From Escherichia coli (GTDB lineage Bacteria > Pseudomonadota > Gammaproteobacteria > Enterobacterales > Enterobacteriaceae), in NCBI RefSeq assembly GCF_030013205.1, contig NZ_CP122648.1: DNA of 64,000 nt; one strand, 5' to 3'. Position 1 is the stretch's first letter, and the number at the start of each line of letters is the position of its first letter. Shown piece after piece: positions 2,648-6,427 of this stretch. The notes beneath the pieces are model-generated. The model saw nothing but the letters and a program-made list of their open reading frames with translations. It ran no database searches and was not told the DNA's origin. Made by a program: the position numbers and the translations under genes.

Positions 2648-2745
2648 TTTTGCCTCCTTTCGCGCCACAAGAAATTAACTGTAGCGGGAAAGGATAGGTT
2701 TGGCTATGTGGTCAGGTATGAAGCAAGGTCAACGGTCACAAAATT

Positions 2746-3531
2746 CTACGCGTCTTCCTGGGGAAGGATGATTTCAATTTGGCTGTCTTGTAAGCGTGAT
2801 TTTAGCGCAGCGGGCGGCAGCTCGTCGGTAAAGAGCGCAGTGACCTGTGCCACGTTACCAATTTCAACCGCCGCCGAAGCATGATACTTAGTGTGATCGG
2901 CGACCAGCAGAATATTTCTCGCGTGCGCCATCATCGTTTTCACCACGTTAGCTTCGTTAACATCAAACTCCATCAACGCGCCATCGCTCTCAATCGCCCC
3001 AACGCTTGTTACCAGATAATCAGCACGAAAATCAGCCACAAAGGACGCCGCTGAAGGGCCAATGATCCCGCTATTATGAGAGCGCAACGTACCGCCGGGC
3101 ACCATCACTTCAAAGCGCGGGTTGTGGTAAAGAATATGCGCCACACGCAGGCTGTTGGTGATTATCCGCAAATGATTGTGGTTAAGTAACGCCCGGGCAA
3201 CATGTTCAACAGTCGTACCGATGGTGATAAATATTGTCGATCCATCAGGAATATAGTCTGCCACCGCTTCGGCAATCGCTTTTTTCTCTTCAGTTTGCGA
3301 AACCTCACGCTGCTCAAACGCCGTATTAACGACGCTGGAGGCCCGACCCGCGCCACCGTGATGGCGCGTGATCAGCCCTTGCTCGCTTAATTTACGAATA
3401 TCCCGGCGGACCGTCTGCGTGGAGACATCCAGCAGATTTGCCAGCTCATCAATATTCATATACCCACGCTCGGCGATCAGCATGAGGAGTTGGTCGTGCC
3501 GCGGGTTACCGGTTAGTTCGGTAAGGCTCAT
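2746..3531 (-). CDS. yihW: DeoR-family transcriptional repressor of sulfoquinovose catabolism (CsqR)
   Basis: ORF 2746..3555 trimmed to MSLTELTGNPRHDQLLMLI...; N-terminal HTH plus DeoR C-terminal sugar-binding domain; 261 aa. Confidence 0.9.
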   Translation of the reverse strand: MSLTELTGNPRHDQLLMLIAERGYMNIDELANLLDVSTQTVRRDIRKLSEQGLITRHHGGAGRASSVVNTAFEQREVSQTEEKKAIAEAVADYIPDGSTIFITIGTTVEHVARALLNHNHLRIITNSLRVAHILYHNPRFEVMVPGGTLRSHNSGIIGPSAASFVADFRADYLVTSVGAIESDGALMEFDVNEANVVKTMMAHARNILLVADHTKYHASAAVEIGNVAQVTALFTDELPPAALKSRLQDSQIEIILPQEDA

Positions 3532-3564
3532 GAAAATTCCTCGAAAAACCATCACCCTGACATT

Positions 3565-4461
3565 TTATACAAAAAGTGACAAAAAAGATCGGGTTTGATC
3601 ACAGTCAGGGATCCCGGCTCGTCCACCGGGACGCGTGCATTTCAACGCCGCTACACCGCTGGCGAAGCGGACTGACTCCGCTAAATCCCCATCTGTTGCC
3701 AGCGCCACCGCCAATGCGCCGTGAAAAACATCACCCGCACCGGTGGTATCTACCACATCAACTTTGAAGGCCGGTTGATGTTGACGCCCGCCATTTTCCA
3801 GCCAGTCACAGCCTGCGCTGCCCTGGGTCACATAGACATGACCATTTGTGAGCGTTTGTGCCTGTTTTAGCGCACTGGCCATCTCTTTCACGCCCGTTAA
3901 GCGTGCCAGACCCGGTTCTGAAAAGGCCGCGTGATCGCTTAATGCCACCAGCTCGCTGATGTCCTGCGGCGTAATGTCCCCGTCCAGAACGGTCATCACG
4001 CCCGCCTGCCGGGCCAGAGTGAAGGCTTTTTTAGCACCGTCGTGCCAGCGTACATCTGCCAGCACAACATCCCACTGAGAGAAATCAATTTCCTCCAACC
4101 ACTCTGCGTCAGGCAGCAGGTCCGGGCTGGGGTAGTTAATGATTATCCGCTCGCCTTTGGCATCCACCATGATGGCGGATTGCGAAGATTTCGCCTGGTT
4201 ATACCGTTTGGTGTAACGGGTGTTAACGCCCCAGGATTCCAGCTCTGCCAGCAGGCTGTTGCCCGTGTCGTCATCACCTACGCGACCAATAAAATCAACC
4301 TGCGCCCCCAGCCTTGCCGCCGCAACCGCTGCCGTCGCCGCTGGCCCGCCACCAACTTCCGTATAATTTCTCGCCACGTATTTACCGCTCTCCGTCGGTA
4401 ATCCTTCCACGTAATAAATACGATCCATCACGGTAATACCTACACAAGCAACACGAATCAT
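3565..4461 (-). CDS. yihV: 6-deoxy-6-sulfofructose kinase (PfkB-family sugar kinase)
   Basis: ORF 3565..4467 trimmed to MIRVACVGITVMD; PfkB motifs (GGGPAATAAVAAARLG, DTTGAGD). Confidence 0.9.
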   Translation of the reverse strand: MIRVACVGITVMDRIYYVEGLPTESGKYVARNYTEVGGGPAATAAVAAARLGAQVDFIGRVGDDDTGNSLLAELESWGVNTRYTKRYNQAKSSQSAIMVDAKGERIIINYPSPDLLPDAEWLEEIDFSQWDVVLADVRWHDGAKKAFTLARQAGVMTVLDGDITPQDISELVALSDHAAFSEPGLARLTGVKEMASALKQAQTLTNGHVYVTQGSAGCDWLENGGRQHQPAFKVDVVDTTGAGDVFHGALAVALATDGDLAESVRFASGVAALKCTRPGGRAGIPDCDQTRSFLSLFV

Positions 4462-4628
4462 GGTCATTCCTTAAGCATTTTGGGATGCGTTCATTTTAAT
4501 TTCACCAATTGTTTAAAAAGTGACGGCTGTCAATTTTTTGACGATAACTTACAAATACGATCAAAAACAGACAAGCAAAGCATGTCATAAATGACAAAAA
4601 GTGACATTACTGTATTCAGGAGAGGGTT

Positions 4629-5525
4629 ATGGCAGCAATCGCGTTTATCGGTTTAGGACAAATGGGTTCGCCAATGGCGAGCAATTTATTGCAGCAAGGG
4701 CATCAACTTCGCGTCTTTGATGTGAACGCCGAAGCTGTGCGGCATCTGGTAGACAAAGGTGCGACTCCCGCCGCCAACCCGGCGCAGGCCGCTAAAGATG
4801 CCGAATTTATCATTACCATGTTGCCGAATGGCGATCTGGTGCGCAGCGTGTTGTTCGGTGAAAACGGCGTTTGCGAAAGCTTATCTACCGATGCGCTGGT
4901 CATCGATATGTCGACCATCCATCCGCTGCAAACCGATAAATTGATTGCCGATATGCAAGCCAAAGGCTTCAGCATGATGGATGTTCCGGTAGGCCGTACT
5001 TCTGCAAATGCCATTACCGGTACTCTGTTACTGCTGGCTGGCGGCACCGCTGAACAAGTTGAACGCGCCACACCGATCCTGATGGCGATGGGCAGTGAGT
5101 TGATCAACGCGGGCGGCCCGGGCATGGGGATCCGCGTTAAGCTCATCAACAACTACATGAGCATCGCGCTCAATGCGCTTTCGGCAGAAGCCGCCGTTTT
5201 GTGCGAAGCCCTGAATCTTCCCTTCGATGTTGCCGTCAAGGTGATGAGCGGCACCGCCGCCGGTAAAGGCCACTTCACCACTTCCTGGCCAAACAAAGTC
5301 CTCAGCGGGGATCTTTCTCCCGCCTTCATGATCGATCTTGCCCATAAGGATCTTGGTATCGCCCTTGATGTCGCCAACCAGCTGCATGTGCCAATGCCGC
5401 TGGGGGCCGCCTCACGGGAGGTTTATAGCCAGGCGCGCGCAGCGGGTCGCGGTCGCCAGGACTGGTCCGCCATTCTGGAACAGGTCCGTGTCAGTGCCGG
5501 GATGACTGCCAAAGTAAAAATGTAA
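4629..5525 (+). CDS. yihU: 3-sulfolactaldehyde reductase (beta-hydroxyacid dehydrogenase family)
   Basis: 298-aa ORF; N-terminal Rossmann motif [14 protein letters not shown]; RBS aggagagg upstream. Confidence 0.9.
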
Positions 5526-5548
5526 CGACTGGATAAAGGAATAAATGA

Positions 5549-6427
5549 ATGAATAAGTACACCATCAACGACATTACACGCGCATCGGGCGGTTTTGCCA
5601 TGCTGGCGGTCGATCAACGCGAAGCCATGCGCATGATGTTTGCCGCGGCTGGGGCACCCGCTCCAGTAGCCGATAGCGTTTTAACTGATTTCAAAGTTAA
5701 CGCTGCAAAGGCCCTCTCGCCTTATGCCTCGGCGATTCTGGTGGATCAGCAATTCTGTTACCGCCAGGTGGTTGAGCAAAACGCGATTGCCAAAAGTTGC
5801 GCCATGATTGTCGCCGCCGATGAGTTCATTCCTGGCAACGGTATTCCGGTAGATAGCGTGGTCATTGACCGCAGAATCAATCCGCTACAAATCAAACAAG
5901 ACGGTGGCAAAGCCTTAAAACTGCTGGTGCTGTGGCGTAGTGATGAAGATGCGCAGCAACGTCTGGATATGGTGAAAGAGTTTAACGAACTGTGCCACTC
6001 ACACGGCCTGGTAAGCATTATTGAGCCAGTCGTCCGCCCACCACGTCGTGGCGATAAATTCGATCGCGAACAAGCGATCATTGATGCCGCCAAAGAACTG
6101 GGCGACAGTGGCGCTGACCTCTACAAAGTTGAAATGCCGCTTTACGGTAAAGGTCCGCAACAAGAGCTTCTCAGTGCTTCACAACGTCTGAATGACCATA
6201 TCAATATGCCGTGGGTGATACTTTCTTCCGGTGTCGACGAAAAACTGTTCCCGCGTGCCGTACGCGTGGCAATGACAGCGGGTGCATCGGGCTTCCTGGC
6301 TGGTCGTGCCGTCTGGGCATCGGTTGTCGGTTTACCAGACAACGAGCTGATGCTGCGTGACGTTTGCGCACCGAAATTACAACAACTTGGCGATATCGTC
6401 GACGAAATGATGGCTAAACGCCGTTAA
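5549..6427 (+). CDS. yihT: 6-deoxy-6-sulfofructose-1-phosphate aldolase
   Basis: 292-aa ORF immediately downstream of yihU; class I aldolase-like; conserved synteny. Confidence 0.9.

Follow-up and report, generated by a model that had tools for sequence, protein, structure and literature searches.

The 64 kb window (the whole stretch of DNA analysed here) contains the yih (sulfoquinovose) cluster of E. coli. Few organosulfur compounds are as abundant as sulfoquinovose, and for gut bacteria the yih cluster is the model pathway by which it is broken down; the DeoR/GlpR family, to which the cluster's repressor belongs, is poorly characterised. Three genes frame the region of interest, and the identities given to them in a preliminary description of this DNA were correct when compared with the RefSeq annotation of 100%-identical genomes.

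2746–3531, minus strand: csqR (yihW), gene for a DeoR/GlpR-family repressor (open reading frame and translation; RefSeq annotation of 100%-identical genomes; Pfam HTH_DeoR and DeoRC on homologues)
3565–4461, minus strand: yihV, sulfofructose kinase gene, stop codon included (open reading frame and RefSeq annotation)
4629–5525, plus strand: yihU, sulfolactaldehyde reductase gene, first gene of the rightward operon (open reading frame and RefSeq annotation)

Control of the yih genes by CsqR has been described before (Shimada et al. 2019, Microbiology 165:78; Kaznadzey et al. 2018, PMC5816610; Sharma et al. 2021, PMC8006165; Gao et al. 2021, PMC8464067), and the locus, the regulator and the bound regions are the same as those discussed here. 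The passages on CsqR in PMC8006165, PMC8249747 and PMC12608037, each citing Shimada 2019, report SELEX and gel shifts showing binding to the yihU/yihV spacer and to CsqR's own promoter at fragment resolution. On both regions binding is cooperative and is released by sulfosugars (PMC8006165, PMC12608037). Transcription starts have been mapped at −27/−28 from the csqR ATG, at −25/−27 for yihV (4486–4488 in the window) and at −15, −25 and −35 for yihU (PMC5816610). The regulator, the locus, the two bound regions and release by sulfoquinovose were thus already known, and our finding is a refinement of a known system and not a new one; what we worked out is a unit made of an A-run and TGACA, its copies, their positions on the promoters and their conservation. 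In the CsqR literature besides Shimada 2019 and Supplementary Figure S4 of Gao 2021 (PMC8464067), binding is located to whole fragments or to a 41-base peak and we found no base-level motif; a CsqR motif may already be shown in either of those two sources.

The preliminary description had pointed to a 10-mer, AAAAAGTGAC, present three times in the non-coding DNA around yihV and not an obvious feature elsewhere. There are exactly three copies in the window, all on the plus strand, and the count, the coordinates and the absence elsewhere hold up; the non-coding location does not for copy 1, which lies in the final four yihV codons (S-L-F-V; stop TAA at 3567..3565).

3571–3580, plus strand: copy 1 of AAAAAGTGAC, in yihV codons 295–298 (extended form CAAAAAGTGACA, 3570–3581)
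4515–4524, plus strand: copy 2, covering roughly −27 to −38 of the yihV promoter (start 4486–4488)
4528–4538, minus strand: AAAAATTGACA, inverted partner of copy 2 with one mismatch (sequence comparison)
4562–4573, plus strand: degenerate copy CAAAAACAGACA, 10/12 identical to CAAAAAGTGACA (repeat search), inside the ChIP-exo peak discussed below
4587–4596, plus strand: ATAAATGACA, upstream member of a conserved TGACA-N5-TGACA pair
4596–4605, plus strand: copy 3, overlapping the proximal yihU promoters
4529–4542: inverted repeat 1, GTCAA (4529–4533), TTTT, TTGAC (4538–4542) (sequence and conservation)
4582–4597: inverted repeat 2, ATGTCAT (4582–4588), AA, ATGACA (4591–4596) (sequence)

Shuffling gave an expectation of 0.22 copies, and none of 100 shuffles reached three. 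The region is 65% A+T and shuffled versions of the two regions had words of 10 bases or more in common in 11 of 300 trials, so a chance repeat in AT-rich intergenic DNA has something to recommend it. The 13-mer common to copies 1 and 3, however, exceeds what was seen in all 300 shuffles, and copies 1 and 2 are deeply conserved, synonymous sites included. Chance is effectively refuted by the conservation data described below, and we regard it as highly improbable.

AAAAAGTGAC is the closest match to a looser unit in which an A-run adjoins TGACA (roughly AAAAAnTGACA). Three of its relatives, AAAAATTGACA, CAAAAACAGACA and ATAAATGACA, do not appear in the preliminary description. Matches with up to two mismatches are at chance level window-wide (67 found, 61 expected), with five clustered in 4516–4606 and one at 3572, and four of the six matches with at most one mismatch fall inside the two CsqR-bound regions. 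The shorter words TGACA/TGTCA occur six times in the E. coli regulatory DNA where 0.51 are expected (P = 1.6e-5), and across 12 lineages they are 8.4-fold denser than in the flanking genes. Related units number six in the yihV/yihU spacer and at least one at csqR, some of them exactly 10 bases apart (4539, 4549, 4559 and 4569; 4592 and 4602). Lag-10 autocorrelation is weak over 4510–4610 (z = 1.6) and reaches 3.1 only for a sub-segment picked post hoc, so the 10-base periodicity, being statistically weak and segment-dependent, is a suggestion and not a result. Copy 2 and its inverted partner together read AAAAAGTGAC-N4-GTCAATTTTT, in which the arms are at least 90% conserved and the four central bases, at 50–90%, are free to vary.

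The two inverted repeats of the spacer, also taken from the preliminary description, fared differently. Inverted repeat 1 is real and kept in nearly all orthologous spacers. E. coli has inverted repeat 2, but conservation fails in the left arm (columns 4582–4588 have 0–60% identity to E. coli) and for that reason the repeat is probably fortuitous.

Using the mapped starts (PMC5816610), each copy of AAAAAGTGAC overlaps a core element of a promoter and is placed to block RNA polymerase. In the csqR promoter copy 1 spans roughly −12 to −22 and abuts the −10 element TATAAA (3569..3564) on its upstream side, so the same bases double as its −10/−35 spacer. Copy 2 covers the yihV positions given above, and copy 3 covers −9 to −18 of the yihU start at 4614 and spans the start at 4604 (−8 to +2).

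A rival reading has the words kept as promoter architecture and not as a repressor site, with TGACA as a −35-like element and the A-runs as UP-like or curvature elements of the many overlapping divergent promoters here. At least six start sites are mapped within ~130 bases here, TGACA is five-sixths of the −35 consensus, A/T runs recur at roughly whole helical turns (by eye), and inverted repeat 1 can be read as back-to-back −35-like hexamers, TTGACA (minus strand, 4533..4528) and TTGACG (plus strand, 4538–4543). Against this, a promoter scan found no −35/−10 pair reaching 9/12 in the yihV/yihU spacer, and no −10 to match those two hexamers. Nor do the copies stand 16–18 bases upstream of the −10s that the mapped starts predict: a −10/−35 spacer is filled by copy 1, and copy 3 overlaps −10/+1. 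Base-level conservation is unusual in the DNA that separates a −35 from its −10, whereas the −10/−35 spacer at copy 1 is ~95% conserved, even at synonymous codon positions. We consider promoter architecture quite unlikely to account for the words. An Rfam scan of 3300–4900 gave no match, which leaves a structured-RNA explanation of the conserved core unsupported. No terminator was found in a scan between yihV and csqR, and when other spacers of the cluster were searched the yihR/yihQ spacer held no motif cluster. Likenesses to IHF, PhoP and PhoB boxes (by eye) were rejected, as none fits all copies or the promoter geometry.

Conservation was examined in about 60 Enterobacterales loci, copy 1 being scored in 61 and copies 2 and 3 in 56; the spacer alignment contains 57 distinct spacers, namely the window and 56 other species. 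It delimits two blocks.

4491–4572: near-invariant core of the yihV/yihU spacer, 82 bases (per-column conservation, 57 spacers)
3561–3609, minus strand: conserved csqR promoter block in the 3′ end of yihV, holding the −10, copy 1 and a CRP-like site (per-column conservation)

Almost all columns of the spacer core are at least 80% identical and most are at least 90% identical, the exceptions being 4505–4506, 4509, 4525–4528, 4543 and 4548. Copy 1 is exact in 38 of the 61 orthologous loci, within one mismatch in 55 and keeps its TGAC end in 57. For copy 2 the figures are 44 of 56 exact and 54 of 56 within one mismatch, and the degenerate CAAAAACAGACA is identical in 37 of 56 species. Only four of 56 species have an exact copy 3, with TGAC kept in 49 of 56; it persists as TGACA-N5-TGACA. 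The motif is thus conserved in orthologous spacers for copies 1 and 2, and for copy 3 as a TGAC core though not as an exact 10-mer. Judged from these alignments, the exact 10-mer is not the conserved unit; TGACA with its adjacent A-run is what persists. The coding location of copy 1 provides a further measure, as the synonymous sites beneath it are 0.94–1.0 conserved compared with 0.42–0.47 across yihV. Over the last 13 codons (286–298) the values are 0.80–1.0, with a single codon at 0.31, which makes some 90% overall compared with roughly 45% for the gene.

In the short cassette, Edaphovirga and Dongshaea the regulators are 68–72% identical, copy 1 is retained as ATAAAGTGACA or ATAAACTGACA, and the CsqR recognition helix, VSTQTVRRDIRKLS, is almost invariant. 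The Klebsiella-type homologue has an altered recognition helix and copy 1 is also absent. The short-cassette spacer of strain QA-1986 630 is without the exact 10-mer, and the spacer of E. coli Nissle, likewise of the short-cassette type, is shifted by K-12 CsqR as well as the K-12 spacer is (PMC12608037). In single diverged lineages the best words common to both regions were rarely or barely above shuffled controls, and were usually copy 1 with a TGACA element. A V-to-I change in the recognition helix (lineage L049, Dongshaea) seemed tied to a G-to-T/C change in copy 1, but Pantoea breaks the pattern and we dropped the idea of co-variation. A fourth exact copy, ~2.5 kb beyond csqR in Citrobacter and Enterobacter, lies inside a 329-residue open reading frame and was dismissed as chance. 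Given the relatedness of the species in the comparison and a core that is frozen throughout, the protein or promoter element responsible cannot be read from conservation.

YihW (CsqR) has a strong in vivo ChIP-exo peak, the sole base-resolution result from living cells that we found, at NC_000913.2 4071641–4071681 with a signal-to-noise ratio of 168 (Dataset S4, PMC8464067), which we projected onto the window through the NC_000913.3 annotation and alignment.

4542–4582: YihW (CsqR) ChIP-exo peak, projected, accurate to ~2 bases

The peak falls between copies 2 and 3, in or overlapping the spacer core, and covers only the degenerate copy CAAAAACAGACA; exact copies 2 and 3 are 14–18 bases outside it. 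The same dataset lists no separate YihW peak at the csqR promoter. Published CsqR binding and the motif agree on the same two regions at fragment level, but the peak lies over no exact copy. The second-strongest YihW peak, a minor one, is in the glpA control region (PMC8464067), where it adjoins AAAAAACGAAC and a run of xCGAA units spaced 10 bases apart.

The exclusion of copy 2 from the peak favours another reading, in which copy 2, alone among the three, serves chiefly as the left half-site of a class-II CRP (or FNR) element, AGTGA-N6-TCAAT, for the yihV promoter, its likeness to copies 1 and 3 is coincidental, and CsqR binds the central block under the peak. Class-II CRP/FNR sites (TGTGA-N6-TCACA or TTGAT-N4-ATCAA) lie near −41.5, and copy 2 with its partner gives GTGA-N6-TCAA ~40 bases upstream of the yihV start; the centre of the AGTGA-N6-TCAAT match, 4526.5, is at −38.5 to −40.5 from the mapped start, and this holds for copy 2 only. 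The invariant arms and freely varying centre of the copy 2 palindrome would also suit such a site. The match improves to AGTGA-N6-TCACT in Leminorella (8/10; one of the 57 aligned spacers) and in Edaphovirga (by eye), and CRP shifts a yihU/V fragment and affects yihV expression (PMC5816610). On the other side, copy 2 and its partner score just 7/10 against TGTGA-N6-TCACA, a level at which the window holds 184 matches. In L049 the change from GTGAC to TTGAC loses a key CRP position and gains a perfect TTGAC-N4-GTCAA palindrome, and copy 1 of that lineage is changed alike. Unlike class-II sites, copies 1 and 3 are without a second half-site; their right halves score at most 2/5 (by eye) and their totals at most 6/10, so they cannot be CRP sites; copy 1 all the same matches copy 2 letter for letter and is no less conserved. 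The csqR promoter has its own reported CRP site at −41.5 (PMC5816610), and a CRP-like site, TTTGA-N6-TCAGG (3594–3609), lies near −42 of that promoter with a score of 7/10. That copy 2 is mainly a CRP/FNR half-site, with CsqR binding elsewhere, we consider rather unlikely. The CRP reading and CsqR binding are not mutually exclusive; GlpR operators O1–O4 at glpFK overlap CRP sites (PMC4117983), and the overlapping roles of copy 2 would resemble that arrangement. Besides the CsqR role proposed here, copy 2 probably also serves as one half of a class-II CRP/FNR-type site.

CsqR half-sites remain the reading we prefer for the three copies, and the paralogue GlpR offers the closest comparison. The DNA-binding regions of CsqR and GlpR are 43% identical with a near-identical recognition helix. 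The tandem glp operators, at glpFK and in the divergent glpTQ-glpACB control region, are also laid out like the proposed yih sites, with neighbouring sites over divergent or core promoters, overlapping CRP sites, and a sugar derivative that releases the repressor. The half-site core of GlpR is CGAAC(A), compared with GTGAC(A) in the yih units, and the 10-base-spaced xCGAA units of the glpA region resemble the xxACA/TGACA units at 4539–4573 and 4592–4606.

The 10-mer is most likely part of a CsqR site because it is real, deeply conserved and found on three promoters known to be under CsqR control. The preliminary description's candidate CsqR operator is in this sense partly supported by the bound regions, the conservation and the overlap with promoters, and it needs correction in that the exact 10-mer is not the conserved unit and the ChIP-exo peak misses the exact copies. 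We favour, with a probability of roughly 0.55, the three 10-mers being the best members of a family of A-run + TGACA units that are most likely half-sites for the CsqR winged-helix domain. Several CsqR subunits would occupy adjacent units in a cooperative manner and overlie the core promoters: at copy 1 the −10/−35 spacer of csqR, at copy 2 with its inverted partner the −35 region of yihV, at the degenerate units beneath the ChIP-exo peak the central yihU promoters, and at copy 3 with its upstream twin ATAAATGACA the proximal yihU starts. Sulfoquinovose, its glycerol glycoside or sulforhamnose, all of them established effectors, would then release CsqR. We infer TGACA with the A-run as the contacted sequence, and likewise the stoichiometry and order of binding.

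A broader reading joins these observations, with CsqR polymerising on units spaced ~10 bases apart over an 82-base core frozen throughout Enterobacterales, the unit at the end of yihV autoregulating csqR, and CsqR also touching glpA and ssuE. Taken as a whole we find it rather unlikely. If true, the C-terminal codons of yihV would double as an operator and the yih control region would be an unusually rigid regulatory module. CsqR at GlpR operators (glpA) and at the ssuE sulfonate-utilisation promoter, by way of the common recognition helix, would tie the breakdown of sulfosugars to the metabolism of glycerol and of sulfonates. With an operator defined at the base level one could build clean de-repressed or sulfoquinovose-responsive reporter constructs, predict CsqR regulons in other genomes, and explain why there is no induction by sulfoquinovose in short-cassette strains, Nissle among them. 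What is already known of the system would stand as before, and the DeoR/GlpR family would gain a defined half-site.

The window is the yih (sulfoquinovose, sulfo-EMP) cluster of E. coli. Several swine ETEC chromosomes are 100% identical to bases 2700-5600 and are annotated there as csqR, yihV, yihU and yihT, and the region is present in 4035 of 5426 complete E. coli genomes. The genes are laid out as follows:

2746-3531, minus strand: csqR
3565-4461, minus strand: yihV, stop codon TAA at 3567..3565
4629-5525, plus strand: yihU, then yihT, yihS, yihR and yihQ

The 10-mer AAAAAGTGAC occurs at 3571-3580 (copy 1), 4515-4524 (copy 2) and 4596-4605 (copy 3), always on the plus strand and nowhere else in the 64 kb. 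A chance repeat is effectively excluded, with three copies observed against 0.22 expected and three never reached in shuffles. The preliminary description took all three as non-coding and proposed them, together with two inverted repeats, as a candidate CsqR operator; copy 1 is in fact coding and makes up the four C-terminal codons of yihV (S-L-F-V), directly before the stop.

Passages on CsqR (YihW) in PMC8006165, PMC8249747 and PMC12608037, citing Shimada 2019, describe a DeoR-family repressor that, by genomic SELEX and gel shifts, binds both the yihU/yihV spacer and the DNA upstream of its own gene, and whose large cooperative complexes are dissolved by sulfoquinovose, sulfoquinovosyl glycerol and sulforhamnose. 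No base-level CsqR motif was found in the literature searched, Shimada 2019 lying outside that search. Kaznadzey et al. (PMC5816610) placed the csqR start at -27/-28 relative to the ATG and gave this promoter a CRP site at -41.5; they mapped yihV starts at -25/-27, and yihU starts at -15, -25, -35, -62/-63 and -82/-92. Projected onto the window, these starts set copy 1 roughly between -12 and -22 in the csqR promoter, immediately upstream of the -10, and copy 2 roughly between -27 and -38 in the yihV promoter, while copy 3 straddles the -10 and the start site of the proximal yihU promoters. YihW ChIP-exo found a single strong in vivo site (NC_000913.2 4071641-4071681, S/N 168), all remaining sites having S/N <14 (Gao et al., PMC8464067 Dataset S4). 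Using the NC_000913.3 annotation, a 1975-1977 base offset from the Kaznadzey U00096.2 coordinate and a K-12/window alignment, which showed three spacer differences and none within the motif copies, this peak projects to 4542-4582 (+/-2 bases). The earlier observation is confirmed with one correction and its interpretation partly supported: the copies do sit in CsqR-bound regions, but the in vivo peak falls between copies 2 and 3 and off both.

A one-genome-per-species scan gave 63 Enterobacterales loci whose CsqR is 74-99% identical, and the order yihU, spacer, yihV, csqR was constant wherever enough flanking DNA was available. Copies 1 and 2 stood up well to phylogenetic footprinting over these loci, the check proposed in the preliminary description (exact in 38/61 and 44/56, with at most one mismatch in 55/61 and 54/56), but copy 3 was exact in only 4/56; TGAC is retained there in 49/56, the conserved form being TGACA-N5-TGACA. 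The functional unit is looser than the exact 10-mer. Among 57 distinct spacers, 4491-4572 was almost invariant, with exceptions at 4505-4506, 4509, 4525-4528 (four bases), 4543, where the base is specific to E. coli, and 4548. At 4548, within the projected peak, the A found in K-12 and in each of the 56 other species is replaced by C in this strain alone. A largely conserved, overlapping palindrome pair (TTTCACCAATTG / CAATTGTTTAAA, 4500-4517, CAATTG centre) lies between the yihV -10 and copy 2. Because the whole core is frozen, conservation alone cannot assign words to CsqR over CRP or RNA polymerase.

Copy 2 and its inverted partner (AAAAAGTGAC-N4-GTCAATTTTT, arms invariant and centre free) also read as AGTGA-N6-TCAAT, a possible CRP or FNR site whose centre precedes the yihV start by 38.5-40.5 bases, the class-II position. 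CRP shifts the yihU/V fragment (PMC5816610). The CRP match is only 7/10, however, with 184 such matches in the window, and neither copy 1 nor copy 3 has a second half-site. One lineage has GTGAC changed to TTGAC at both copies 1 and 2, which weakens the CRP reading, and it is plausible that copy 2 serves both CsqR and CRP/FNR. The first proposed inverted repeat (GTCAA-TTTT-TTGAC, 4529-4542) was confirmed and is conserved, whereas the second (ATGTCAT-AA-ATGACA, 4582-4597), though present in E. coli, has a left arm that is unconserved among orthologous spacers. The first can be read as TTGACA and TTGACG back to back, which fits promoter architecture, with TGACA as a -35-like element and A-runs as curvature elements, but this reading does not suit where the three copies lie with respect to the mapped starts.

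The unit AAAAGTGACA is not enriched window-wide (67 matches with at most two mismatches vs 61 by chance). Five of these matches lie within 4516-4606 and one at 3572, and 4 of the 6 with at most one mismatch are inside the two CsqR-bound regions. The family members are:

3570: CAAAAAGTGACA
4514: TAAAAAGTGACG
4528-4538, minus strand: AAAAATTGACA
4562: CAAAAACAGACA, inside the ChIP-exo peak
4587: ATAAATGACA
4595: CAAAAAGTGACA

Over 248 bases of regulatory DNA from E. coli, TGACA/TGTCA occurs 6 times vs 0.51 expected (P = 1.6e-5), and across 12 lineages its density is 8.4-fold above that of the flanking genes. Several cores fall at exact ten-base steps (4539, 4549, 4559, 4569; 4592, 4602; 3577, 3587, 3597), the autocorrelation for this spacing being weak (z = 1.6 over the full core; a sub-segment picked post hoc alone reaches 3.1).

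With a probability of roughly 0.55, slightly better than even, we propose that these units are CsqR half-sites. The winged-helix domain would contact them, neighbouring units would be bound cooperatively so that the csqR, yihV and yihU core promoters are occluded, and a sulfosugar would release the repressor. Binding has been shown for whole fragments, as have the effectors, the start sites, one in vivo peak, the conservation and the enrichment; the contacted bases and stoichiometry are what we infer here. As a working model the paralogue GlpR comes closest: its DNA-binding region is 43% identical to that of CsqR (recognition helices VSTQTVRRD and VSPQTIRRD). Four GlpR operators are found at glpFK, of which two are overlapped by CRP sites and one covers the -10 (PMC4117983), and the glpA control region carries xCGAA units at ten-base intervals. 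The runner-up YihW peak (S/N 13.7; Gao 2021, PMC8464067) lies there, among the GlpR operators, adjoining AAAAAACGAAC and 11-17 bases ahead of the glpA ATG (NC_000913.3 ~2352630, L074). Another minor peak from the same study (S/N 8.2) maps to CGGTCAGTCTGTCGGAGAGACA, 36-66 bases ahead of the sulfonate-utilisation gene ssuE (NC_000913.3 ~997548-997578, L073). CsqR may cross-talk with the glpA and ssuE promoters.

Copy 1 is mostly kept in more distant lineages, immediately upstream of the regulator's -10. It takes the form ATAAAGTGACA in the short cassette, a variant yih region in 1327 complete E. coli genomes (~67% DNA identity, 60-80%), and in Edaphovirga (regulator 71% identical), and ATAAACTGACA in Dongshaea (Aeromonadales, 68%); the central TTACAAATA...TCAAAA block is likewise preserved in all three. 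The exact 10-mer is absent from the short-cassette spacer of strain QA-1986 630, and gel shifts with K-12 CsqR work as well on the short-cassette spacer of Nissle as on that of K-12 (PMC12608037). In QA-1986 630 (L069, 5100-5290) the yihU-proximal repeats are three TGTCA, opposite in orientation to TGACA. We rejected the short-cassette TTGTCATTATTTTGTCAAT as a Pho promoter, since it is Pho-box-like with 11-base spacing but too near the yihU start codon. The Klebsiella-type homologue (L071, Klebsiella pneumoniae complex, 71% identical) lacks the copy-1 motif and promoter block, its gene begins 30 bases after the kinase, and it alone among the lineages compared has a changed recognition helix and wing (RRDIYKLS, TRQRGGASR), which suggests co-transcription with the kinase and possibly a shifted DNA specificity. 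An extra exact AAAAAGTGAC about 2.5 kb past csqR in Citrobacter and Enterobacter (~7262-7296 in L007, L013, L022, L023, L026, L028, L031, L034 and L055) sits within a 329-residue ORF and was judged chance. An 885-base contig labelled Bacillus coahuilensis m4-4 (L054, NZ_ABFU01000106.1) encodes CsqR residues 52-261 at 100% identity to E. coli and is almost certainly E. coli contamination of that assembly.

Neutral divergence is large, with third-codon positions of yihV 0.47 and four-fold sites 0.42 identical to E. coli. Over codons 286-298 (3568-3606), which hold the csqR -10, copy 1 and the CRP-like site, third positions were 0.80-1.0 identical across 54 species apart from one codon at 0.31 (~0.9 overall), and no stretch of the gene is more constrained than its last ten codons. 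The end of yihV doubles as the csqR promoter and a candidate operator. The regulator, targets, effectors and in vivo site of this system are already known; to this the analysis adds a candidate family of half-sites, with its position on the promoters and the depth of its conservation, and the use of the end of yihV as the csqR promoter and putative operator.
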